Source: Escherichia phage JS10
Direction: 5' to 3' (one strand)
Sequence record: EU863409
Length of the DNA stretch: 64,000 nt
Positions within the stretch are counted from its first letter, which is position 1, and the number at the start of each line of letters is the position of its first letter. Under the pieces are notes generated by a model that saw only the letters and a list, made by a program, of their open reading frames with translations, searched no databases and was not told the origin of the DNA. This document shows positions 2,983 to 60,000 of this stretch, one piece after another. Made by a program: the position numbers and the translations under genes.

Positions 2983-3024
2983 AAAGTCTCCTTTTATACG
3001 GTACTCATGTACCGTACGTATTTA

Positions 3025-4842
3025 TTATGACATCCAAGCCTTGCGCAGCTGTGGGTCGTTTCCAAGGAGCATTTCGAACTGGTCTTTCCAATCTTCAGGT
3101 AATTGAACTACATCGAATTTAGGGTCTTGAATCATTCGACGGTATTCAGCCTTCTCAAGAGAACCGAGACCTTTAATATAACGAATAGAATGTTTTGGTA
3201 GAGAGTCCTTAGCTTTGGTATAACTAGGTACATCATAGAACCATTCCTGTTCTTTACCAACCTGAGCAATGATTACAGGAGTCTTACAGAAACGAATTCG
3301 TCCCTGTTCAAACAATTCCGGCCACTGACTAAAGAAAGCTAATAACGAAGGATAAATCGAACCAGTACCATCCACATCGGCGTCAGTCATGATAGCGATA
3401 TTGCGATAGTTGGTTTTATCTGCAGGTTCACCAATAACCAGTCCAGTGATTGCACAGATATCAAACAATTCTTTGTTCTTCATGATATCGGCAGCAGTCA
3501 TACCCCAGGTATTCATAACCTTTCCGCGTAACGGATAACCACCTTGGAGGTCTTTATTACGAACTTCAATGAAAGGACCCATTGCAGAATCACCTTCCGT
3601 AAGGAATAAAGTCGTATCAGCATCTTTGCCATACATATTGGCTTTAATATGCTTATGGACCTTGGCTTTCAAAGCTTTCTTAGCAGCTTTTGTTTCGGCT
3701 GCTTTTTCAGCAGCGAGTTTACGTGCTAAAGCTGCTTCGACAATAGGCATAATCAACCCATCGACCTTAAGAATAGCCGTTGCAATTTTCTTAGCATCAA
3801 TTTGGATATGGTTACGAATCTCACCAAACGGAGAGGTCAATCGCTCTTTAGTCTGTGAATCAAAACGCATATTGCTCATATCACGAATGAACATGACCAT
3901 CGTAAGGCATTCTTTAACACGAGCCTTAGTTACTTCGATTCCTTTATATTTCTTTTTAATACCAGGCAGAAGGTGCTCACAGATATCGTCAAACACACAT
4001 TCAACGTGATGGCCGCCATTCTTAGTATGGATATTGTTTACATACGTCAGTTGACGGAACCCGTCCGGAGAAGGAGTAAATGCCATCGAAACATTATCAG
4101 TTTCTTGGATTACAAAGTCTTCACCAAATTGCTTAGCATACTTTTTAAAGTTGCCATCTACTTTTTTACCATTAAAAGTAAATTGGATATCCGGATAAAT
4201 TACGGCCAGTGTTTGAAGACGGTCTAATGTAATATCCAGATAAATTTGGGACAGACTATTTTCTTCGAAATGGTTAAAGTCTGGGGTGAATATAACCGAA
4301 GTACCCTTACCTTTAGATTTCTTAGTAGACCAACCTTTGTTTTCCATTCCATTGGAACAGTTAACAGTAATCTCATTCTCACCATCAGAGGTGATGCCTG
4401 TGAACAAAACAGAGAAGATATTAGTTAAACTACTACCAACACCGTTCATGCCGCCTGTCTTACGCTCAGCGTCATCTCCAAAGTTACCACCGGCTTTTGG
4501 AATAGTCCATGCAGCTACAGGACCCGGAATTTGTTCACCGTTTTGGTCAGTAACCATTGCTTGAGGAATACCACGGCCATTATCAGAAACTGAAACCTGA
4601 TTATTCTTAATTTGAACATCGATTTTATTTGCGAATTTAAAATTGGTACGAATAGCTTCATCGACAGAGTTATCAATGATTTCGTCAATTAATTTAACCA
4701 GTCCAGGAACATAGTTCACCTGGGTAAAATTACCAAACAGGAATCGACCGTGAGCTTCATTAGCACTTGAGCCAATATACATCCCACTACGTTTTTTGAT
4801 ATGTTCAATGTCGGACAGTACTTTAATTTCATTCTTAATCAT
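3025..4842 (-). CDS. 39: DNA topoisomerase II large (ATPase) subunit, fused 39/60 type
   Basis: 605 aa; GyrB-like ATPase N-terminus; T4 synteny upstream of rIIA. Confidence 0.85.
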   Translation of the reverse strand: MIKNEIKVLSDIEHIKKRSGMYIGSSANEAHGRFLFGNFTQVNYVPGLVKLIDEIIDNSVDEAIRTNFKFANKIDVQIKNNQVSVSDNGRGIPQAMVTDQNGEQIPGPVAAWTIPKAGGNFGDDAERKTGGMNGVGSSLTNIFSVLFTGITSDGENEITVNCSNGMENKGWSTKKSKGKGTSVIFTPDFNHFEENSLSQIYLDITLDRLQTLAVIYPDIQFTFNGKKVDGNFKKYAKQFGEDFVIQETDNVSMAFTPSPDGFRQLTYVNNIHTKNGGHHVECVFDDICEHLLPGIKKKYKGIEVTKARVKECLTMVMFIRDMSNMRFDSQTKERLTSPFGEIRNHIQIDAKKIATAILKVDGLIMPIVEAALARKLAAEKAAETKAAKKALKAKVHKHIKANMYGKDADTTLFLTEGDSAMGPFIEVRNKDLQGGYPLRGKVMNTWGMTAADIMKNKELFDICAITGLVIGEPADKTNYRNIAIMTDADVDGTGSIYPSLLAFFSQWPELFEQGRIRFCKTPVIIAQVGKEQEWFYDVPSYTKAKDSLPKHSIRYIKGLGSLEKAEYRRMIQDPKFDVVQLPEDWKDQFEMLLGNDPQLRKAWMS

Positions 4843-13524: not shown

Positions 13525-13841
13525 TAATCACACGAGCTTGACGAAGAGTCACAGCTTCCCGAGTCAGAATAAGACGAATCGCCGGTCCAAGAACTAACGG
13601 CAGCCGCTACTACAATAGGAGTGGTATCAATATGGCTTGTTCGACTAGCTTCTAGATGTTCTTTAAACTTTTTAGAATTCAAAGGAAGGGCCTTGGCATC
13701 CACATTACCCGCCTTTTCAGGTTGACGGGTAACTTCTTCCATCATACCATCGCCTACATAAACATATTCCTTCGGGCCTGAGATAGGAACTACACCTTCA
13801 CCAGGAGTGGTCTTGAAAAAATTTTTAAGCCAACGAATCAT
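13524..13841 (-). CDS. hypothetical protein
   Basis: 105-aa ORF with Ser/Cys-rich C-terminus. Confidence 0.4.
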   Translation of the reverse strand: MIRWLKNFFKTTPGEGVVPISGPKEYVYVGDGMMEEVTRQPEKAGNVDAKALPLNSKKFKEHLEASRTSHIDTTPIVVAAAVSSWTGDSSYSDSGSCDSSSSSCD

Positions 13842-14047
13842 AGGAAACCTCGTTTAAATTCAACCTTATCAATATCATCAGTCTCGTGACGGATTTCGGC
13901 GTTAAATTCGATAGAACCGTCTTCATGCATCATAAATGAATGGACAATAACTTCGGTATACCAAGGAGTATAGAAGTACTTTTTCAATACGTGATTAGCG
14001 ATAATTTCATCCAAAGTTTTATTTGGTTTAATCCAACGATTTAACAT
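13838..14047 (-). CDS. hypothetical protein
   Basis: 69-aa ORF. Confidence 0.4.
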   Translation of the reverse strand: MLNRWIKPNKTLDEIIANHVLKKYFYTPWYTEVIVHSFMMHEDGSIEFNAEIRHETDDIDKVEFKRGFL

Positions 14048-14114
14048 AGTGTTCTCCTCTATAAGATACGTCTATCTTAACATGGTCTACTCGTAAAGTA
14101 AACTACTAAAACGA

Positions 14115-14143
14115 AAAAAGGAACCCGAAGGTTCCTTATAATT
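14115..14143 (-). terminator. UUCG-loop intrinsic terminator after soc
   Basis: aaaaaaggaacccgaaggttcctt: 7-bp stem, cgaa loop, U-run on minus RNA. Confidence 0.6.
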
Positions 14144-14149
14144 AATCTA

Positions 14150-14383
14150 TCATGCCGCTGGAGTTACTTTAAACAAGTCTTCGTTTGCCGTAATCCATGC
14201 CTCCCGGTCATCCTTCTCAAAAACGGTAGAATATGCTGCATCTTTAGAAGGGAAAGTCTGGTAATGAGAGCCCGCAATTTTGTGGACATCTGAATACAGA
14301 GTAAAATCAATGGAAATTTCTTTGCCTTCTACAGTACCACCGGTGACGTCACGGGTAGCTGTTTTGATATTAACATAAGCCAT
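14150..14383 (-). CDS. soc: small outer capsid protein Soc
   Basis: 77 aa; MAYVNIKT...GKEISIDFTLYSDVHKIAGSHYQTFPSKDAAYSTVFEKDD matches T4 Soc closely. Confidence 0.85.
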   Translation of the reverse strand: MAYVNIKTATRDVTGGTVEGKEISIDFTLYSDVHKIAGSHYQTFPSKDAAYSTVFEKDDREAWITANEDLFKVTPAA

Positions 14384-14413
14384 GCAATTCTCCTTTATGA
14401 TTAATTACAAATG

Positions 14414-14421
14414 TATTTATA
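14414..14421 (-). promoter_or_regulatory. late promoter TATAAATA for soc
   Basis: plus-strand tatttata; about 30 nt upstream of the soc ATG, with AAGGAG RBS in between. Confidence 0.6.
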
Positions 14422-14423
14422 CC

Positions 14424-14447
14424 AAAAAAGGAACCCGAAGGTTCCTG
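14424..14447 (-). terminator. UUCG-loop intrinsic terminator after soc paralog
   Basis: same aaaaaaggaacccgaaggttcct hairpin as at 14115. Confidence 0.6.
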
Positions 14448-14451
14448 GTAA

Positions 14452-14682
14452 TTAAAACATATCGTCGACAAACATTTTACTATTTAAAGCAATCCATTCC
14501 TCCCTTTGGTCTTCTTCAAAGACCGGAGTATAAATTGGTTTTTCAGTAATAGAAATTGTATAGTTTGCACCAGCAACACGGTTAACATTGGAATAAAGAT
14601 TAAAATTAACCGAAGCTTTTCTGTTACCAATAGTCATATCGCCGTCAACATGAACGAAGGTCTTGATGTTTACATAAGCCAT
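14452..14682 (-). CDS. Soc paralog (divergent second copy)
   Basis: starts MAYVNIKT at ATG 14680-14682 (track gives 14694); 76 aa, alignable along its whole length with the soc ORF. Confidence 0.7.
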   Translation of the reverse strand: MAYVNIKTFVHVDGDMTIGNRKASVNFNLYSNVNRVAGANYTISITEKPIYTPVFEEDQREEWIALNSKMFVDDMF

Positions 14683-14724
14683 GCAATTCTCCATTTTATT
14701 AATTACATGACTTATTTATTAGTA

Positions 14725-15246
14725 TTAATAACCTCGGTCTTGACGAGCAAAGTTCTCGGCATTTTTAAGATAATACAGTTTAAAGATTTCTTCAGCAGTC
14801 AGTCCAAGACCCTGGAACATATTCAGAACAAAGTGCAGAATATCAATCATTTCGAATTTAATTTCGAGCTGGTCTTCAGGAGACAAATCATTAATCAGGG
14901 TTTCGCGACGTTCAGCATGTTGAGCTTTCCAAGGCTTCCATACTGCAGATGCATCTTTTTCACCATTGCTCATACCACCAAGAGAAGTCAGAAGTTCACG
15001 GAATTCGTCATCAATATAATCTTTCTGGTTGCGAAGCCAATCGACAACTTCACCCGCAGTGGCCAAATCATCAGGATGACGATTATATTCAGGCTTATCT
15101 TTAGCTAAACGAACCTGTAATGATTTCTGCATATCAAGCATAACCTGCAGAGGGTCTTTATCTTCGTGAATCAGAGCATTAAAATAAGCTTCTTCAGCTT
15201 TATCGGCACCGGCAATCAGTTGAGAACATTCATTAAAATGAGCCAT
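14725..15246 (-). CDS. 56: dCTP pyrophosphatase (dCTPase)
   Basis: MAHFNECSQL... matches T4 gp56 start; MazG-like; track start 15264 trimmed to ATG at 15244-15246. Confidence 0.85.
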   Translation of the reverse strand: MAHFNECSQLIAGADKAEEAYFNALIHEDKDPLQVMLDMQKSLQVRLAKDKPEYNRHPDDLATAGEVVDWLRNQKDYIDDEFRELLTSLGGMSNGEKDASAVWKPWKAQHAERRETLINDLSPEDQLEIKFEMIDILHFVLNMFQGLGLTAEEIFKLYYLKNAENFARQDRGY

Positions 15247-15340
15247 TATATTTTTCCTTATCAATTCATTTGTTAGTAAGTGAGATAATTATAAACTGCT
15301 AGATTAAAGCGAATAAATATTAATTTAACAGGAGGATAAC

Positions 15341-15541
15341 ATGGGTAGTATCTTTTATCAAATTTGGAAATTGGCTGAAAAGAAAGACAAGAAAATGATG
15401 TTAGGTTTTCTTGCGCTGGACGTATTCCTTTGGAATCTTCTGGTAGTCCCTGTAGCCGCTAGCCAAGGGATAATTTTACCAGCGGTTACAATGGAGCACG
15501 TAATGAGCATTATAGGATTCTTTACCGGAATCCCTGCTTAA
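15341..15541 (+). CDS. small hydrophobic protein (66 aa), plus strand
   Basis: AGGAGG 5 nt upstream of ATG; two predicted hydrophobic segments; lies in the 56-61 intergenic space. Confidence 0.4.
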   Translation: MGSIFYQIWKLAEKKDKKMMLGFLALDVFLWNLLVVPVAASQGIILPAVTMEHVMSIIGFFTGIPA

Positions 15542-16566
15542 ATCTTGGAATATTTCGAAAGTCTCATTTTTGCCATTAAACCCTGGGCTATATTAGCTTT
15601 CATATATGCCAATACATCATTTATATCAGCTTTATCTTTCATAACCATATCATTTATATCTTTAGAAGGCCATGGAGCCTTGTCCCAGAATAGAACCCTT
15701 TCGCCGGCATCAACTAATCGTTGCATACGCTTAATTGTGTCAGGATGACGGGGTTCATTGTCCATTACCCAAGCACGAGTTTCTTTACATGGAACCATAG
15801 CCAAGTCCAACGACCCACCAGTAATTGCTATTGCATTAGGTACGAATAATGAATCAATAGGACCTTCCATTACCCACACCAATTGACGTTCGTCAACTGT
15901 ATCCATTCCATATATTTTTGTAGCTTGGTCGTGAGCTTTTATTGTAATATATTTTTGTGGAGCATCTTTACGTAAGGCTCGGCCCTGAAAACTTTCAATT
16001 TGTTTATTCTTATTGAAAATCGGAATAACCAAACGTGGTTCAGGCATTTCTTTGGAATAGGTCCCTGGATTAACAGAATTCACCAATGCAGGCCATTCTT
16101 TAGTAAACCATAACCGATTCCATTTATTTTCAGGAATGCACCGCAGAGTTACATACTTAATAATAGGATGGTCTTTCGGCATTCTATCTAATCGTTCACA
16201 GAAATTAAGCTTTTCAATGACAGGCATCTTAGCTTTAATTTTTTCAGATATCTCCACCTTAGGTGCAGCTTGTCTCCCGAACGATTGCTCTTTATGTTTC
16301 TCAAGAATATATTCGCGATATAAATCAGGCTCATATTCGTATAGGTACTTCTTAATTCCTGCTGAATAATCGCAGTTAAAACAGTGTAGCATTACAGAGC
16401 CGTCATTGGCCGGATAGGCCCAGAATCGAGCTTTGTTCTCATCCTTTTGGGAGTCGCCACATACACGACAACGACAGTTTAATTTAAAATCACTACCAGT
16501 TACTTGTCTGAATTTAGGTTGGTAATTCAAGGCACGTACAGCAAATTCTCTATCGACATATGACAT
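15538..16566 (-). CDS. 61: DNA primase
   Basis: 342 aa (same length as T4 gp61); N-terminal Cys4 zinc ribbon CRCRVCGDS...CFNC. Confidence 0.85.
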   Translation of the reverse strand: MSYVDREFAVRALNYQPKFRQVTGSDFKLNCRCRVCGDSQKDENKARFWAYPANDGSVMLHCFNCDYSAGIKKYLYEYEPDLYREYILEKHKEQSFGRQAAPKVEISEKIKAKMPVIEKLNFCERLDRMPKDHPIIKYVTLRCIPENKWNRLWFTKEWPALVNSVNPGTYSKEMPEPRLVIPIFNKNKQIESFQGRALRKDAPQKYITIKAHDQATKIYGMDTVDERQLVWVMEGPIDSLFVPNAIAITGGSLDLAMVPCKETRAWVMDNEPRHPDTIKRMQRLVDAGERVLFWDKAPWPSKDINDMVMKDKADINDVLAYMKANIAQGLMAKMRLSKYSKI

Positions 16567-16782
16567 TATTTTTCCTTGGGCTCTAAATTAATAGAGCCAT
16601 TATATCATTCGTTTTCGGATTTTTCTTTACGCTTTTTAGATGGGATTTGTTCAGGCCCTTTGTTGACGACTGCGCCTGAGGTAGTTCCGGAGGCAATATT
16701 AGATGGATTTCCACCAGCATCGCCTGCGACCATATCTTCGTTCATAACTTCTTTAAAAGATTTCATAGGCTCCTGGCCTTAT

Positions 16783-33399: not shown

Positions 33400-35078
33400 T
33401 CTAACACCGTGAATCGCCCAACTTTCTTCATTTGAAGATGTTGGCCATAAGCTTGTGGGTCATGGTCTCGGTGAGAGATAATGAACACGTTCGTATCCTC
33501 AAGGCTATTCAAGATGGTTGCAATGCTCTTAACGCCTTCAGAATCCGTGGCACTATCAAAAACTTCATCAAGAATTAACGTGCTGATATTAACACCTGAT
33601 ACCTTAGAAGCAATATCACGCCATGTAAAAAGAAGTGCGATATCAATACGTGCTTTCTCACCCTGTGAAAATGAAGCATAACTAAAGTCTTCACGTCCAC
33701 GTGATTTAATCGTCTCATTGAATTCTTCGTCTAGGGTAAAGACGTAGTCCGCTTCCATAATCTTCAAATAAGAATTAATCTGCTTATTAAAGATAGGAAT
33801 GTATTTCTTAATAATGGAACCTTTAATACCAGTATCCTTCAACATTTCTGTCAGAATTCCACGATGATATTTTTCCATTACCAAGGACGATTTGGTAGAG
33901 ACGATTTTATCAAGCTCTGCTTGAAGCGCAGCAATCTCTTCGGCATTACTTACGAACTCAGCTGCTGCCTGGTCAATTAATACCTTAACCTTTTTGGCTT
34001 TCTCTACGGCAGTAATGGCTTGCTGCTTATGAGTAGCTATCTGAGATTTAATAGCCAACGCTTTATTGCGTTGTTCGGTTACTTGGTCTTTAATGAGCTT
34101 GAGCTCTTGGTATTGCTCATTAATCTTATCCAAAGATTTTTGAAGCTCAAAGTTTTTATCCTTAATTTTAGTAAGGATATTACCATGCTCTTCTAACCCT
34201 TGCATACACGTAGGGCAGTGACCACCAGTTTCGTATAACTTAACCACCTTTGTAAAGGTTGCCATATCATTTTTGATTGCAAATCCTTTATTACTCAGGT
34301 CACTCATGGAGTCGCTAGGGTCATCATCTACGATAACATTGAGTAATTCATCAGTCAGGGATTCTATGCTCGCCTTCGCAGTCCTGGCTTCTTTAACGAG
34401 CTCATCATACATTAATTGTAGGCGGGCGGCGTTCTCGCCGGATAATTTACGTTGACGTTCTTCGTTGTCATTATAAATTTTAATTTGTTGGGTAATAGAA
34501 TCTTGCTTAACGTCTATTACTTGGATTTGGCTATTAGTCTCACGAATTAAAGATTTGTTCAACTTATCCATATCCGCTAATACAGAAACCTCTAAGAGGT
34601 CTTCGACGAGTTTTCTTCTTGCAGGAGTGGATAGGCCCATAAAAGGGGTATATCCAGCTGTGCCGAGTACGACAATTTGTTTGAAGCTTGCATAGGACAT
34701 TCCGATAAGCTGTTCAAATTCCGCTTGGAAGTCTTTACTGCTGGCAGATTCATCAAGACGTTCACCGTCACAAGAGATTTCAAAAACGTTGGGTTTTTGC
34801 CCGCGTTTGATATAGTATTCTTTGCCATCATATTCCATCCACAGTTCGACCAAAAGGTCTTTCTTGTTACTTGAGTTAATCAACTGCCCTTTCTTAACAT
34901 CACGAAAAGGCTTACCGAACAGAGCAAATGTTACAGCTTCAAGGAATGTTGATTTCCCTGCACCATTTTTACCAGTGACTAAGGTCTTTTGGACCTTATC
35001 AAGTTGGATTGTAATAGGCTGCTGCCCTACCGACATAATATTTTTATACGTTACTTTTTTTAACTTAAAAGTCTTCAT
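33396..35078 (-). CDS. 46: recombination nuclease ATPase subunit (Rad50/SbcC-like)
   Basis: 560 aa from ATG 35076-35078 (MKTFKLKKV); Walker A GKNGAGKST; closely matches T4 gp46. Confidence 0.9.
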   Translation of the reverse strand: MKTFKLKKVTYKNIMSVGQQPITIQLDKVQKTLVTGKNGAGKSTFLEAVTFALFGKPFRDVKKGQLINSSNKKDLLVELWMEYDGKEYYIKRGQKPNVFEISCDGERLDESASSKDFQAEFEQLIGMSYASFKQIVVLGTAGYTPFMGLSTPARRKLVEDLLEVSVLADMDKLNKSLIRETNSQIQVIDVKQDSITQQIKIYNDNEERQRKLSGENAARLQLMYDELVKEARTAKASIESLTDELLNVIVDDDPSDSMSDLSNKGFAIKNDMATFTKVVKLYETGGHCPTCMQGLEEHGNILTKIKDKNFELQKSLDKINEQYQELKLIKDQVTEQRNKALAIKSQIATHKQQAITAVEKAKKVKVLIDQAAAEFVSNAEEIAALQAELDKIVSTKSSLVMEKYHRGILTEMLKDTGIKGSIIKKYIPIFNKQINSYLKIMEADYVFTLDEEFNETIKSRGREDFSYASFSQGEKARIDIALLFTWRDIASKVSGVNISTLILDEVFDSATDSEGVKSIATILNSLEDTNVFIISHRDHDPQAYGQHLQMKKVGRFTVLE

Positions 35079-35328
35079 CGTTATAAGCATCCTTGATGCA
35101 TGATTCAGCCATATGAATTAATGTTTCTGGAGTATCATCTACCATTACATTAAAGCTAAATTCCACAGCCCAATCGGTAGCAACATAAACTTTAATAAGC
35201 TCGCCGGTATCACGAGTGCTCACGGCTTCAAACCAGAACTTAATTGTACTAGGTTGTCCATCATCATCAATAACTATACAGTCGTGTTCCAGTTCAAGTC
35301 CCGATTTTTTGAATTCATCTAAAGTCAT
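35065..35328 (-). CDS. hypothetical protein (46.1 position)
   Basis: 87-aa ORF. Confidence 0.5.
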   Translation of the reverse strand: MTLDEFKKSGLELEHDCIVIDDDGQPSTIKFWFEAVSTRDTGELIKVYVATDWAVEFSFNVMVDDTPETLIHMAESCIKDAYNDEDF

Positions 35329-36347
35329 CGTGTAACCTCATTATAAAGTTGTGCGGCCATAGTCTTAAGGGCTTTAACGTCTTCTTCAGTGTGGCCATCA
35401 GGAAGGGCGTCGATATAATCATACATCATATCCAAGAGGGATTTAACTTCATCTTCCTCTTCAGAATCATCGATATCAACACTATTATCTACCTTAGACA
35501 CAATACGTAAAGAGTGAACAACCTTTTCAAGCTCTGATTCGAACTTAGTAAGACCGTCATCAATTTTATCGACTATAACACGAACTGCGATATTTGTAAA
35601 ATCTTTGTAATCGATAGTCGCGTTAGGATAATGAATCTTACGGTGCCAACAGGTTTCATTAATGATGAAATCCATTTTATGAGTTTCGGTATCGAAAATC
35701 CAGAAACCACGAGGGTCGTTCTCATCGCCTGCAGTAAGGGTCCATGGAGTACCAATGTACTTGACGTTTGCTGCATCAGAAATAGTATGGAAGTGGCCTG
35801 ACCAAACTTGCTTATACTTTTTAAGGAAATCAGGTTCTAAACCGTGAGATTTCATTCCTTTATAGAAATAGAAACCATTTAATTCCCAATGACCAATACA
35901 GAAATCTGCTGTGGTATTTTTGATATGGTCCATGATATCGGTCGTGTTTTCTTCACACATCCATGGAATCAAATCAATTTCGGTGCCATCAAAGTTAACC
36001 GTAGTAGGTTTTTCAATAACCTTGATATGGTCATATTTACCGAGAACTTCAGAAGCAGCATTAGGAGTCAAGGTATTTTTGTAGTGCATATCATGATTAC
36101 CAACAATGGTATACATGGTAATGCCATTAGCTTTAAGCAAATCAGAGATTTCGCGAGCGAATTCCATACACTTATGGGTAATTGCTTTACGAACGTCAAA
36201 GATATCACCGTATTGAATCCATACGGTAATACCATTTGCTTTAGAATAATCAATAGCGTCTTGGATACCTTGACGTTGGATATTTTGTACCCACACATCA
36301 TCGGCCTTCACTCCAAGGTGCCAGTCACCTGTGTTTAATATTTTCAT
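35325..36347 (-). CDS. 47: recombination nuclease subunit (Mre11/SbcD-like)
   Basis: starts MKILNTGDWHLG as T4 gp47; track start 36374 trimmed to ATG 36345-36347. Confidence 0.9.
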   Translation of the reverse strand: MKILNTGDWHLGVKADDVWVQNIQRQGIQDAIDYSKANGITVWIQYGDIFDVRKAITHKCMEFAREISDLLKANGITMYTIVGNHDMHYKNTLTPNAASEVLGKYDHIKVIEKPTTVNFDGTEIDLIPWMCEENTTDIMDHIKNTTADFCIGHWELNGFYFYKGMKSHGLEPDFLKKYKQVWSGHFHTISDAANVKYIGTPWTLTAGDENDPRGFWIFDTETHKMDFIINETCWHRKIHYPNATIDYKDFTNIAVRVIVDKIDDGLTKFESELEKVVHSLRIVSKVDNSVDIDDSEEEDEVKSLLDMMYDYIDALPDGHTEEDVKALKTMAAQLYNEVTR

Positions 36348-36487
36348 AAGCCGAGCACCGTTATCGCAATGCAAAATAAAATTATTGAGATGAACCCATC
36401 AGGAGTAGAAAAGAATCCTATCCAACAGGCTCGTGTGAATGTGTAGAATGCCATGAATAACACGACATATCCTAAAAGTAATTCCAT
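36344..36487 (-). CDS. small membrane protein (47 aa)
   Basis: MELLLGYVVLFMAFYTF...; GAGGAG RBS; ATGA overlap with gene 47 start. Confidence 0.4.
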   Translation of the reverse strand: MELLLGYVVLFMAFYTFTRACWIGFFSTPDGFISIILFCIAITVLGL

Positions 36488-36530
36488 ATGTTCTCCTCAG
36501 TTGGTTCATTTTATCATCCGAATATAAAGC

Positions 36531-36550
36531 AAAAAAGGAGCCTAAGCTCC
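36531..36550 (-). terminator. intrinsic terminator-like hairpin
   Basis: aaaaaaggagcctaagctcc. Confidence 0.45.
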
Positions 36551-36804
36551 TTTACCAATTAATACCCCGTACAGAGGTTCATGAGAAGACCTGAACTTGA
36601 TAGGCTTATAGGTAATAGTACCTTCATTTTCCGCTTTAATACGAGCAGCTTCAAATTTAAGTATCATCTCATTTTTGTCAGATTTAATCTTATCAAAATC
36701 CATCGAATTCGTCATTCATATAACCTCTTAAACTTTTTCGTATTCGTCATTCATAAGCTTAAAAATCCGGATGTTCATCTTTCATTAGCCACCTGTCCAC
36801 GTTA

Positions 36805-41094: not shown

Positions 41095-41568
41095 TCATTT
41101 AAGCGATTTCCTCAGTTGTTTTTTAAATGAATCGACCATTTGTTTCTTTGTGTCAGATTCATTATAAGTCATTCCATGTGAAAGCATTTCAGCAATCATT
41201 TCTTCCTTACCTAATCTACTGAACTCTTTGGTTTTATCAGGAACGAAATTAGGATGGATATTGTTTTCAGTATAATCAGATTTCAGATAGACCAGCAAAT
41301 TCTCTAACCATTCGAGGTAGTCAACATTTTGACCTTTAAGACCAGAACGGTTGAACTTATGCTTCATTTGTCCTTCTGCAGCATTGCACAGGTTACATAG
41401 TAAACCACGAACCTTACCAGCTTTTGGCCCGCTCAATTCATGGTCGTGGTCAAGGTGGTTACTTTGAACATCAGGGTTTAATTCACGTTTACAAATCAAA
41501 CACTTACCACATTGTGCATCATAAAGTTTTTGTTTTTCTTCTTTGTATAATTTGCCGGTCAACAACAT
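41095..41568 (-). CDS. 49: endonuclease VII (Holliday-junction resolvase)
   Basis: 157 aa; MLLTGKLYKEEKQK...NHLDHDHEL...GLLCNLCNAAEG near-identical to T4 gp49. Confidence 0.9.
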   Translation of the reverse strand: MLLTGKLYKEEKQKLYDAQCGKCLICKRELNPDVQSNHLDHDHELSGPKAGKVRGLLCNLCNAAEGQMKHKFNRSGLKGQNVDYLEWLENLLVYLKSDYTENNIHPNFVPDKTKEFSRLGKEEMIAEMLSHGMTYNESDTKKQMVDSFKKQLRKSLK

Positions 41569-41603
41569 AATAAACCCTTACCATTATTAGATAAGGGTAT
41601 TTA

Positions 41604-41789
41604 TTATTTTTCAAATGTGCTATAGAACGAACGGTGCAACCGTTTAAATTGACGAATCATCTTTTTGGTAGGACGAGTATACAATCCCACACAGGTGGCC
41701 ATAAACTGGTCAGTAGGGCTTCCTTTGATAAGAAGTTTCCAGACCTTGTCACCGTTTAACTTTTCGGTATAGACTAATGCAGTTTTCAT
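41604..41789 (-). CDS. hypothetical protein
   Basis: 61-aa ORF. Confidence 0.4.
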   Translation of the reverse strand: MKTALVYTEKLNGDKVWKLLIKGSPTDQFMATCVGLYTRPTKKMIRQFKRLHRSFYSTFEK

Positions 41790-52653: not shown

Positions 52654-52746
52654 ACAAAAGTCCTTTGTTATTTTATACGAATTTGCCTTTCGGCCTTAAC
52701 CGATAGCGATTACCAAAAGCTAAAGCTCTACGGTTAGTATTACTAT

Positions 52747-53025
52747 TTATAGCTTTTTAAGCTTACGACAATACGAATAGAACACGTCGTTAAAATTATA
52801 TTCAACCCAATTCCTCTGTATAGGCGAGGTAATGGAAAGCATATAATGCGCTTTAATTAAATCCATCCCATTTTTATTAGGGCATTCTTTATTATTAGCA
52901 TTATACGTCGCTGCTACAACTTCTATCTCTCTTTTGTAAGCCGCATCATCCATGATGGGCGAAAGAACAATATAAGAGATGGCCACAGCGAACGCTAGAA
53001 TTAAAATCTTTGAATTTAGGTCCAT
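52747..53025 (-). CDS. small membrane/secreted protein
   Basis: 92 aa with hydrophobic N-terminus. Confidence 0.45.
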   Translation of the reverse strand: MDLNSKILILAFAVAISYIVLSPIMDDAAYKREIEVVAATYNANNKECPNKNGMDLIKAHYMLSITSPIQRNWVEYNFNDVFYSYCRKLKKL

Positions 53026-59480: not shown

Positions 59481-59969
59481 TTATCTATAAGCAGCCCAAG
59501 TACCTGTTTTAAAGGTGGCGATAACACGCTTGGCACGATTCGGGGTTTGCTTGTACCAACGAGACTGCGCCAGGTTAACTGCCGCATCGTCCCAACGTTT
59601 CTGTTGGAGCATACGTAAAGAGTTAGTGAACCCTGCCACACCTGCTTCACCCATTTGGAAGACCATATTAATCAATGCGCAACGACGAACTTCGTCCAAC
59701 ACATCATAAACCGGTTTCAATTTAGGATTGCGCATTATAGCTCTACGAGCATTTTCCACTGAACGATTAAAGAGTTGTTCAGCTTCAGCCATAGTAATAC
59801 GACCATTACAAACTCGACCCATAAGCTTATCAAGTTCAGCGCGAGCAACATCTTTAGATGGGTTCTTGGTAACTAACTGGCCAATACCAATAGTCCAATA
59901 ACCTTCGGTGTCTTTATAAAGGTTTAAATCAAGACCTTCGTCTTGACGTAACATATCAAAAATATCCAT
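59481..59969 (-). CDS. e: endolysin (T4 lysozyme)
   Basis: 162 aa; long identical blocks with T4 lysozyme ([62 protein letters not shown]). Confidence 0.95.
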
Positions 59970-59974
59970 AATTA

Positions 59975-59992
59975 CCTCCTGATTATAGGAGG
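59975..59992 (-). promoter_or_regulatory. RBS-sequestering hairpin of gene e
   Basis: inverted repeat cctcct/aggagg around a 6-nt loop; the AGGAGG RBS is in the 3' arm. Confidence 0.6.
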
Positions 59993-60000
59993 TATTTATA
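59993..60000 (-). promoter_or_regulatory. late promoter TATAAATA of gene e
   Basis: plus-strand tatttata immediately upstream of the hairpin. Confidence 0.6.

Follow-up and report, generated by a model that had tools for sequence, protein, structure and literature searches.

Two Soc genes in tandem in Escherichia phage JS10: probable stacking of alleles of different origins at the soc locus

Results

The window analysed in this work is the stretch of 64,000 nucleotides (64 kb) of Escherichia phage JS10 (EU863409). Its minus strand carries, head-to-tail, two open reading frames (ORFs) of the family of Soc, the small outer capsid protein, which cements the capsid. They are here called socA and socB, and both copies occupy the slot bounded by gene 56 (dCTPase) and mrh.2, which is the conserved position of soc in T4-like genomes:

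13838..14047, minus strand: mrh.2 homologue (ORF; PHROG 1873), the downstream neighbour, where the backbone resumes
14150..14383, minus strand: socB, T4-type Soc gene, 77 aa (GenBank ACL78250 / YP_002922373)
14452..14682, minus strand: socA, divergent Soc-family gene, 76 aa from the ATG at 14682 (GenBank ACL78251)
14725..15264, minus strand: gene 56 (dCTPase), ORF matching the JS98 gene 56 annotation (Pfam dUTPase_2, 27.8 bits)

The initial annotation had seen two Soc-like ORFs of 77 and 76 aa in tandem, and the Pfam, PHROG and PDB matches given below confirm that both are genuine; it had also called the 76-aa gene the second copy, which is incorrect, since on the minus strand this is the gene transcribed first. 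The promoter-proximal copy is socA, abutting gene 56, an early/middle gene and the upstream neighbour of the pair, and the promoter-distal copy is socB. An upstream in-frame ATG at 14694 lengthens socA to 80 aa and is the start used in GenBank (ACL78251). Both genes are in the public record, their annotation as Soc dating from 2009 (ACL78251, ACL78250); a search of the literature on JS10, JS98, Dhakavirus soc and two-copy soc found no discussion of the tandem. The arrangement is known from one genome record, that of JS10, the only record sharing its coordinates (CUA3, PP410321) being an assembly made by mapping to a reference, in which an N-run covers exactly 14147-14723.

On sequence evidence, the family membership of both proteins is settled. 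Pfam Soc PF16855, whose gathering score is 27, matches socB with 110.4 bits (residues 3-74) and socA with 65.8 bits (residues 3-70), and PHROG 1715 matches them with 130 and 110 bits, respectively. A PDB sequence search returned T4 and RB69 Soc chains at E 4e-27 for socB and 2e-15 for socA (5.3e-27 and 1.9e-15 for the T4 Soc chain 5vf3_O). The tadpole-shaped fold of the family is exemplified by RB69 Soc (crystal structure 3IG9/3IGE). In an alignment of nine Soc sequences, N5, S24, F27, Y30, Y41, W63 and N67 are retained in both proteins, and socA keeps all of the invariant columns (7/7). The common Soc motif HYQ[TI]FPS is absent from socA, as it is from the sole Soc of EcS1 and of PspYZU05, and the most conserved segment of the family, HYQTFPSEKAAYST, is replaced in socA by NYTISITEKPIYTP; if this segment is a gp23* contact, socA may misfit the JS10 capsid (gp23 itself lies outside the window). 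An AlphaFold2 prediction of socA, made from a two-sequence alignment only, gave a mean pLDDT of 45.6 and a pTM of 0.25, values too low for the model to be used. Each protein has peptides of its own (e.g., ASVNFNLYSNVNR and VAGANYTISITEK in socA, EISIDFTLYSDVHK in socB).

Each gene belongs to a module of the same build, consisting of a late-promoter octamer, 30 nt with a Shine-Dalgarno (SD) sequence, a Soc ORF of 76-77 aa and the same C(UUCG)G terminator:

14112..14137, minus strand: terminator 2, AAGGAACC-UUCG-GGUUCCUU and U run, after socB
14390..14395, minus strand: AAGGAG, SD of socB (from the sequence)
14414..14421, minus strand: TATAAATA, consensus late promoter of socB, directly abutting terminator 1; predicted +1 near 14408
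14424..14446, minus strand: terminator 1, AGGAACC-UUCG-GGUUCCU and U run; local fold z-score -3.5
14674..14715, minus strand: translation-initiation hairpin of socA, 15-bp stem (from the RNA fold)
14713..14720, minus strand: AATAAATA, late-promoter octamer of socA, -13A variant; predicted +1 near 14707

T4-type late initiation depends on gp55/gp33/gp45 and starts some 6 nt past the octamer; the gp55-dependent promoters were defined here by the octamer TATAAATA at -13 to -6, about 18-52 nt before the start of a late gene, the octamer being avoided elsewhere in the genome. In both modules, exactly 30 nt separate the end of the octamer from the ATG. The 77-aa gene has the consensus octamer and the strong SD AAGGAG upstream, just as first described, and the description of AATAAATA in the equivalent position before a much diverged 76-aa gene is also accurate. 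The SD of socA (GGAG, 14692..14689) is weaker than that of socB, and its octamer fits the consensus at 7 of 8 positions, with an A at -13, a position of low conservation in T4-like late promoters that is reported to be either A or T in most of these phages (PMC1524935). The variant AATAAATA occurs four times in the window (8.97 expected by chance), each time 18-36 nt before an ORF start (4/4), that of gene 49 included; TATAAATA also occurs four times in the 64 kb (6.65 expected by chance), three of them preceding ORF starts (socB, lysozyme e and a 53-aa ORF) and the remaining one being intragenic, and both octamers are under-represented in the window. In JS98, AATAAATA stands 26 nt before late gene 9, and in the late region of this phage 12 of the 16 TATAAATA and 2 of the 6 AATAAATA are in promoter position. 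The AATAAATA leader of socA, 15-bp hairpin included, is almost base-for-base that of the only soc of TH44 (Escherichia virus, Gaprivervirus, MT446415; a record marked UNVERIFIED and unannotated). Given this shared leader of a sole soc, the promoter position of all four sites in the window and a complete T4-type hairpin, we abandon the earlier view of a degraded late promoter and read AATAAATA as a working -13A late-promoter variant in this group of phages, serving soc and gene 49 among others.

T4 late genes situated inside early units (e, soc, 49 and I-TevI) carry an inhibitory translation-initiation hairpin, a helix described for soc, e and 49 of T4 in PMC3014915. A masking hairpin was defined here as one sequestering the SD and/or the AUG, with a 5′ arm that comes from the octamer or just after it and is absent from late transcripts. 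The socA hairpin has its 5′ arm at 14715..14701, its 3′ arm, with the AUG, at 14688..14674, and the GGAG in the loop; the predicted fold of the full leader has -15.5 kcal/mol, and that of the transcript from the predicted late +1 has -4.1. Masking hairpins of the same design precede soc in T4, TH44 and JS98, with compensating bases in JS98, and JS10 genes 49 and e also bear one. In socB the hairpin is reduced to a 7-bp remnant (UGUAAUU/AAUUGCA), which is not a masking hairpin in the above sense, and the leader is a chimera whose 5′ arm resembles that of JS98 and whose 3′ arm resembles that of TH44.

An identical UUCG-loop terminator had been reported after each copy, and indeed the 64 kb contain the 16-nt hairpin GGAACCTTCGGGTTCC at just two sites, one after each soc copy (0.02 expected by chance). 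Both copies read GGAACC-UUCG-GGUUCC, with a C-G-closed UUCG loop followed by T5-T6, and are predicted Rho-independent terminators; they are the only terminator-like calls on the minus strand in 13700-16700. An Rfam scan of 13700-15400 gave a chance match on the terminator alone (E 0.87).

The two proteins are only distantly related, with 39-41% identity, 58% identity of their coding sequences at the nucleotide level and nearly saturated synonymous sites (pS 0.65). SocB is 96% identical to the single Soc of TH44, 64% to T4 Soc and 64-68% to T4-group Soc, and the dN/dS of 0.12 between the JS10 and TH44 genes places it, by this estimate, under purifying selection (omega 0.12). In an identity matrix of 43 alleles, socA comes second to last for socB among the 42 other alleles, and is itself nearer to the Soc of Merlin (48%) and S16 (46%) than to socB (39%). 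No closer match than 50.7% identity was found for socA in 50,697 phage records, clustering at 90% leaves it as a singleton among 5.8e9 clusters, and the representatives nearest to it (of 1.84e9) have 39-49% identity, all of which marks socA as a singleton lineage, not a decayed copy.

Single-soc relatives had been proposed as the comparison for a duplication. The relatives of JS10, at ~97% identity, carry a single soc each, of a third, RB69-like type (92-97% mutual identity) that neither JS10 copy resembles. This RB69/JS98-type Soc, of the same family and locus, is the standard Dhakavirus allele (JS98, dhaeg, E33, 04086 and C6) and is absent from JS10; socB is 47-49% and socA 32-38% identical to it, and it lacks the EE(D/N)QR insertion that T4, S16, socA and socB share. 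No second soc was found in the longer 56-to-mrh.2 intervals of dhaeg, E33, 04086 and C6, which hold a small unrelated ORF instead.

The departure of JS10 from its relatives has sharp limits and is accompanied by direct repeats:

14147..14723, minus strand: foreign soc cassette with the two soc units and their leaders, an interruption of the Dhakavirus backbone in JS10
14361..14396, minus strand: direct repeat D2 copy B, the partner of copy A
14660..14695, minus strand: direct repeat D2 copy A, covering the SD, the start codon and the first codons

In a megablast of 14050-14760, JS98-like genomes match the flanks only, and an alignment of JS10 with JS98 and TH44 gives the same cassette boundaries as the CUA3 N-run. 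The left boundary is the gene 56 stop codon, with JS98-like sequence before it and TH44-like sequence immediately after; the right boundary is the hairpin of terminator 2, downstream of which the sequence is again JS98-like. The D2 copies are 89% identical and share an identical 21-nt core, GGAGAATTGCATGGCTTATGT, of which an exact search of IMG/VR found no match. A crossover in this ribosome-binding site (RBS)/start core would yield the TH44 layout, i.e., the AATAAATA leader joined to socB, the JS10 tandem minus one unit. The pair has a periodicity of ~300-310 nt, with leader and terminator segments repeated, and its junction, where the terminator T-run passes straight into TATAAATACATTTGTAATTAATCATAAAGGAG, is unique, being unlike both the leader proximal to gene 56 and the backbone after the terminator.

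T4 soc belongs to the same family and lies in the same slot (gene 56 upstream, mrh.2 downstream), its leader is nearly that of JS10 socA (TATAAATAATCATGTAATTTAAATAAAGGAGAATTACATGGCT in T4, AATAAATAAGTCATGTAATTAATAAAATGGAGAATTGCATGGCT in socA), and its terminator, GGACUCC-UUCG-GGAGUCC-U6, is of the C(UUCG)G type as in JS10. T4, however, has one soc, with segF between 56 and soc, whereas JS10 has two copies and no endonuclease gene at the junction; also unlike T4 soc, socA uses -13A and socB is without most of the hairpin. The only other adjacent pair found is that of Enterobacter phages CIP9, IME523, Q7622 and Entb_45, in which a canonical soc adjoins a downstream Soc-GDSL hydrolase fusion. In this fusion, a 502-aa protein that also contains a GDSL/SGNH hydrolase domain, the variant Soc domain is N-terminal; it shares the 'Y.[IL]S[IL][ST]E.P[IL]Y' middle motif with socA and is only 36% identical to it. 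Escherichia phage EcS1 and Pseudomonas phage PspYZU05 also have a non-canonical, 'LSLS-type' middle motif like that of socA, here in a single-copy Soc 33-37% identical to socA. Phage records with two Soc-like places can be given as an upper bound only, from 1007 places in 995 records, and the Soc-GDSL fusion of Enterobacter phages probably accounts for many of the additional places. The long repeat proteins P0006 and P0007, matches of the exhaustive search, were rejected as low-complexity false positives and are not Soc arrays.

Discussion

The interpretation that we favour, with a probability of roughly 0.65, is that the soc locus of JS10 consists of two complete and independently regulated Soc modules of different origins, stacked by recombination at conserved flanks. 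Because the two alleles are not sisters, and the ~97%-identical relatives carry a third soc type, the tandem is taken as a foreign cassette, and socA and socB look like two foreign alleles brought together by recombination, not like the outcome of a recent duplication and decay. Everything between the gene 56 stop codon and the second hairpin would have replaced the genus-typical RB69-like allele, as comparison with the relatives suggests, and passage between the tandem and the single-gene layout of TH44 could take place by recombination in the 21-nt identical core, which holds the RBS and the start codon, or in the hairpin. The argument for separate origins rests on the identity matrix. The contrast in identity between flanks and coding sequences was considered as decisive proof and rejected, as T4 nearly shares the leader, a sign of functional constraint; for the same reason, the conservation of the flanks is silent on the age of the stacking. 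It is also possible that the two genes go back to an old duplication in some donor lineage that has not been sampled, and were moved as a unit.

What was first proposed, a tandem duplication with one divergent copy, would mean that soc was duplicated in situ in the JS10 lineage and that one copy then diverged rapidly while its late promoter decayed. The head-to-tail arrangement, the periodicity with its repeated leader and terminator segments, and the much greater distance of one copy from the family consensus would all fit such a history. The copies, however, are not each other's closest relatives in the matrix, neither resembles the genus-typical allele in spite of a backbone ~97% identical to JS98, and the pS of 0.65 far exceeds the divergence of that backbone; in addition, the supposedly decayed leader is almost identical to the functional single-copy leader of TH44, with its hairpin intact, and its octamer also precedes gene 49 and other genes. 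We hold this history to be very improbable. A still lower probability is given to an artefact, in which two soc alleles of a mixed lysate were assembled in tandem. Such an error could be suspected from the single record behind the tandem, from flanks common to both alleles that could mislead an assembler and from the failure of CUA3 reads to cover the region, but the T-run/TATAAATACATTTGTAATTAATCATAAAGGAG junction is unique, therefore reads spanning it must have existed, and the gap in CUA3 is explained by that phage carrying a different soc allele. The simpler artefact raised at the outset, a sequencing or assembly duplication of one gene, is ruled out because the coding sequences are only 58% identical.

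An unlikely account, if less so than the preceding two, makes socA a passenger brought in by recombination with or beside socB, weakly expressed or incapable of binding the gp23* lattice of JS10, and on its way to deletion via the 21-36-nt direct repeats, with socB as the sole decoration of the capsid. In line with this are the weaker SD of socA and its -13A octamer, the replacement of the most conserved Soc motif, the direct repeats flanking the unit and TH44 itself, whose AATAAATA leader fused to socB is the layout expected after the deletion; Soc is dispensable in T4 (PMC3012670), and socA was found in no other genome among the 5.8e9 clusters and 1.84e9 representatives searched. Against it, the socA ORF is intact, retains every invariant Soc position and clears the Pfam threshold by a wide margin, the hairpin of its leader, the spacing of its octamer and its terminator are likewise undamaged, EcS1 and PspYZU05 rely on the same type of motif in their only Soc, and the binding of heterologous Soc is documented (PMC3708895).

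If the modules are complete and independently regulated, as we favour, both genes would probably be transcribed late in infection as monocistronic mRNAs of ~290 nt. In read-through transcripts from gene 56 the socA hairpin would bury the AUG; the late transcript, starting about 6 nt past the octamer, would be without half of the 5′ arm, and therefore socA should be translatable. Terminator 1 would end the socA mRNA and shield socB from upstream transcription. The weaker SD and the non-consensus octamer, on the other hand, mean that socA may be made in much smaller amounts. The phenotype of T4 soc concerns survival at pH 10.6-11 and at 60 °C, and Soc occupancy in T4 varies with the inter-capsomer angle. 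The protein is a trimer that binds between capsomers on the expanded gp23* lattice, with 870 copies per T4 head (PMC9958956, PMC3012670). Judging from the genes and their signals, both JS10 proteins are probably made and assembled; they would compete for, or share, the inter-capsomer sites, and the outcome would be a mixed decoration or the dominance of the better-fitting Soc. A more elaborate version, which we consider doubtful and less probable than the passenger account, is a two-component Soc cement maintained by selection, where late socA and socB co-assemble on one capsid, either as heterotrimers at quasi-threefold positions, which would be the mixed Soc trimers first suggested, or by partition between classes of inter-capsomer sites differing in angle. 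If true, JS10 would naturally possess two capsid clamps, orthogonal or complementary to each other, and the pair would not be a transient product of recombination.

T4 and RB69 Soc have already been exploited for T4 capsid display, and should both JS10 proteins decorate the capsid, they would provide a natural pair of divergent Soc adaptors of relevance to this technology. For the rest, the present results are mostly a clarification, the genes being in the public annotation and each regulatory element being a textbook T4 device, although the -13A variant AATAAATA matters for the annotation of promoters. They suggest that the soc slot is an exchangeable cassette, delimited by the gene 56 stop codon, the 21-nt RBS/start core and the conserved hairpin terminator, such that genomes ~97% identical may carry Soc alleles less than 50% identical, and that two such alleles may be stacked.

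Organization of the soc segment

The initial annotation's two Soc-family ORFs in tandem are borne out, as both socA and socB match Pfam PF16855 (65.8 and 110.4 bits, respectively; gathering score 27), PHROG 1715, and PDB chains of T4 and RB69 Soc. So is their common UUCG-hairpin terminator, whose 16-nt sequence GGAACCTTCGGGTTCC occurs at only two sites in 64 kb, one per soc copy. The layout, on the other hand, had to be turned around: the tandem is real, but its strand is the minus one and the divergent copy is the first transcribed, not the second. In 5′ to 3′ order, the strand carries:

Features of the soc segment and its flanks
15264..14725, minus: gene 56 (dCTPase)
42 nt, minus: leader between gene 56 and socA
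14682 (ATG) to 14454..14452 (stop), minus: socA, 76-aa ORF
14446..14424, minus: hairpin terminator after socA
14421..14414, minus: TATAAATA octamer of socB
14395..14390, minus: AAGGAG ahead of socB
14383..14150, minus: socB, 77-aa ORF
14137..14112, minus: hairpin terminator after socB, same as that of socA
14047..13838, minus: mrh.2

Both genes of this 171,451 bp genome, Escherichia phage JS10, are already known, having been annotated since 2009 (socB as ACL78250/YP_002922373, ‘Soc small outer capsid protein’; socA as ACL78251/YP_002922374, ‘small outer capsid protein’), and our literature search found no paper treating the pair. The annotated socA start is an upstream ATG at 14694, giving 80 aa (MENCMAYV..., window 14680-14694, minus strand); it overlaps socA's own Shine-Dalgarno (ATGGAG) and lacks one of its own, and homology to socB, TH44 and T4 indicates that translation really starts at ATG 14682 (76 aa).

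Origin of the two alleles

The JS10 backbone is ~97% identical to JS98, MN04 and other Dhakaviruses, and all Dhakaviruses inspected (JS98, MN04, dhaeg, E33, 04086, C6 and IMG/VR contigs) carry a single soc of a third, RB69-like type, showing 92-97% mutual identity, 47-51% identity to socB and 32-34% to socA. When aligned with JS98 and with the Gaprivervirus phage TH44, which has a single soc, JS10 is JS98-like until the gene 56 stop codon and TH44-like directly after, and JS98-like sequence resumes at the second hairpin. These switches, in a backbone whose relatives have another allele, indicate that segment 14147-14723 is a foreign cassette in a Dhakavirus backbone. The sole database record with JS10 coordinates, the reference-mapped assembly of vB_EcoM_CUA3 (PP410321), has a run of Ns at 14147..14723 covering exactly the soc segment, and neither supports nor contradicts the tandem, yet it delimits the unusual stretch. 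Between 12500 and 16600 this ‘partial genome’ reproduces the window's coordinates and ORF positions exactly, and has 774 N over 4.1 kb. Clearly it is a consensus built from reads mapped to JS10 and no independent assembly, and the N-run suggests a different soc allele in CUA3.

The pair had been interpreted as a tandem duplication, but it is not a recent one: socA and socB share 41% identity in protein, 58% in DNA and 52% at third codon positions, with pS at 0.65, near saturation. Among 43 Soc alleles compared in a matrix, the closest to socB is TH44 (96%), followed by T4 (64%), S16 (60%) and Merlin (58%), with socA second to last at 39%, whilst the nearest to socA are Merlin (48%) and S16 (46%), not socB. 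The two are not sister sequences, neither is the allele of the genus, and stacked heterologous alleles replace the duplication-and-decay reading.

Decay is not apparent in the proteins either. socA is a singleton among 5.8 billion clusters, matches itself and then only sequences of 39-49% identity when 1.84 billion representatives are searched exhaustively with HMMER, and reaches a top tblastn identity of 50.7% across 50,697 phage records. Nevertheless, the seven columns that do not vary across a diverse Soc alignment are all conserved in socA, which departs chiefly in the most conserved stretch of the family, where HYQ[TI]FPSEKAAYST becomes NYTISITEKPIYTP. A similar ‘Y.LSLSE.P.Y’ type characterizes the sole Soc of Escherichia phage EcS1 and of Pseudomonas phage PspYZU05, and is therefore proper to working Soc proteins; in Enterobacter phages, a Soc-GDSL hydrolase fusion has it as its N-terminal domain. 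socA is an orphan lineage rather than a ruined copy. For socB, the 13 nucleotide differences from TH44 (dS 0.193, dN 0.023, omega 0.12) show purifying selection. A structure predicted for socA with an alignment of two sequences had a pLDDT of 45.6, too poor for use.

Two repeats are common to both soc units: 36 nt over the Shine-Dalgarno, start codon and first codons (89% identical, including a 21-nt core, GGAGAATTGCATGGCTTATGT, identical in both copies), and 42 nt over the terminator (86% identical). The T4 soc leader is almost the same as that of JS10 socA and TH44, so these flanks are conserved because they are functional, and their similarity is therefore a substrate for recombination and no evidence of recency. 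In TH44, a socA-type leader (AATAAATA...GGAGAATTGC) is joined directly to a socB-type coding sequence, exactly as would be produced by a crossover inside the 21-nt core of a JS10-like tandem; the TH44 type could equally have been one parent in the unequal exchange that made the tandem. The 56-soc junction is a plastic, variable slot across T4-like phages, occupied in T4 by the homing-endonuclease gene segF (1607-2281 of the T4 locus, L015) and in dhaeg, E33, S16 and Merlin by one to three small unrelated ORFs (comparison loci L011 636-767; L013 636-776; L047 116-666; L048 515-667). E33 also has a mobE-like gene immediately upstream of gene 56.

Late promoters and leader hairpin

The variant octamer of socA had been described as a degraded late promoter. 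Its AATAAATA leader, however, is nearly base-for-base that of TH44, where it precedes the only soc, and, according to Nolan et al. (PMC1524935), conservation of the T at -13 of the T4 octamer is poor across most T4-like phages, ‘with either A or T commonly found’. The window contains 4 AATAAATA sites versus ~9 expected by chance, all four lying 18-36 nt upstream of a same-strand ORF start:

AATAAATA sites in the window
41598-41605, minus: ahead of gene 49 (endonuclease VII; 41568..41095; Pfam PF02945 + PF09124)
15312-15319, plus: ahead of a small conserved ORF (15341-15541; phrog_2024; AGGAGG Shine-Dalgarno)
3019-3026, minus: ahead of a 53-aa ORF (start 2982)
Fourth site, minus: ahead of socA

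The phrog_2024 ORF encodes a hydrophobic 66-aa product and lies on the other strand from the early genes around it. In T4, gene 49 is known, along with soc and e, to have both an inhibitory hairpin and a late promoter (PMC3014915), and the leader of JS10 gene 49 also adopts such a fold (-15.5 kcal/mol), which extends to the AUG. The late region of JS98 has a AATAAATA 26 nt upstream of gene 9 (baseplate), and the 61-nt intergenic space that holds it contains no TATAAATA. Finally, the octamer end lies exactly 30 nt from the ATG in socA and socB alike. These five lines speak against decay, and the -13A promoter of socA is, judging by sequence, intact.

Of the consensus octamers elsewhere, the one at 59993-60000 precedes lysozyme gene e (59969..59481, minus) and is followed by a CCUCCU...AGGAGG hairpin (59955-59990; -14.1 kcal/mol) that sequesters the Shine-Dalgarno as in T4, whilst one of the four TATAAATA sites (52744-52751, minus) is not followed by an ORF start in the next 65 nt and may be intragenic or serve another transcript.

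In the socA leader, 14715..14701 pair with 14688..14674 in a helix of 15 bp, with GGAG in the loop and the AUG in the 3′ arm. The full leader folds at -15.5 kcal/mol, as opposed to -4.1 kcal/mol for RNA from the predicted late +1 (~14707, six nt past the octamer), which lacks eight nt of the 5′ arm. The soc genes of T4, TH44 and JS98 have the same arrangement, the JS98 helix with different, compensating bases (CACCUGUAAUUAA / UUAAUUAUGGGUG). In T4, a device of this kind stops translation of long early transcripts (PMC3014915), and such masking makes sense for socA since it follows early gene 56 with no terminator between. The socB leader is a chimera that joins a 5′ arm of JS98 type to a 3′ arm of TH44 type, and only 7 bp of the helix are left; this leader sits directly behind the socA terminator, which should shield socB from read-through.

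Rarity and other paired capsid genes

A Soc profile run over ~35 distinct T4-like contigs and records found two short soc genes in JS10 only, and a canonical soc followed by a Soc-GDSL fusion in three contigs, from Enterobacter phages of CIP9 type. socB-like matches occur at 1007 places in 995 phage records, so at most ~1% carry a second Soc-like gene; several of the extra places are in Enterobacter phages. In these T4-like phages (MN882610, which is CIP9, MN087708, OL989991 and ON630910), a 502-aa protein (P0012) is encoded ~70 nt downstream of canonical soc; in loci L024, L025 and L026, soc spans ~1183-1437 and the long ORF runs from ~1506 to the locus end. The protein joins a Soc domain at its N-terminus (30.7 bits in Pfam, over the gathering score) to a GDSL/SGNH hydrolase at its C-terminus (68 bits), is variously named ‘lipase’, ‘virion structural protein’ or, in CIP9, ‘hoc’, and may be a capsid-anchored esterase. 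Another capsid-gene tandem in the genus is that of gene 24 (capsid vertex protein) in JS98 (34205-35485 and 35486-36769 of its locus, L046; record coordinates 106204-108768). A link to Soc is speculative, since Soc is not bound next to the gp24 vertices in T4.

Proposed mode of action

The anatomy and comparative origin of the pair are observed, and from them we infer all later steps. At late times of infection, RNA polymerase directed by gp55 would initiate at both octamers, yielding two ~290-nt monocistronic mRNAs, each with its own UUCG hairpin end. Both would be translated, socB probably more efficiently because of its consensus octamer and longer Shine-Dalgarno, and both proteins would encounter the expanded gp23* lattice. 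Decoration of the phage, if it occurs, requires that one or more of the foreign Soc proteins be compatible with the capsid. socA may also bind, or mixed trimers may form, or socA may be an idle passenger pending deletion via the direct repeats.

The soc tandem is genuine; although unusual, it is of an ordinary kind, being made of annotated genes of a known family and standard T4 regulatory parts. Only a genuinely two-component Soc lattice, if true, would raise the importance of the JS10 pair, which is otherwise low to moderate.
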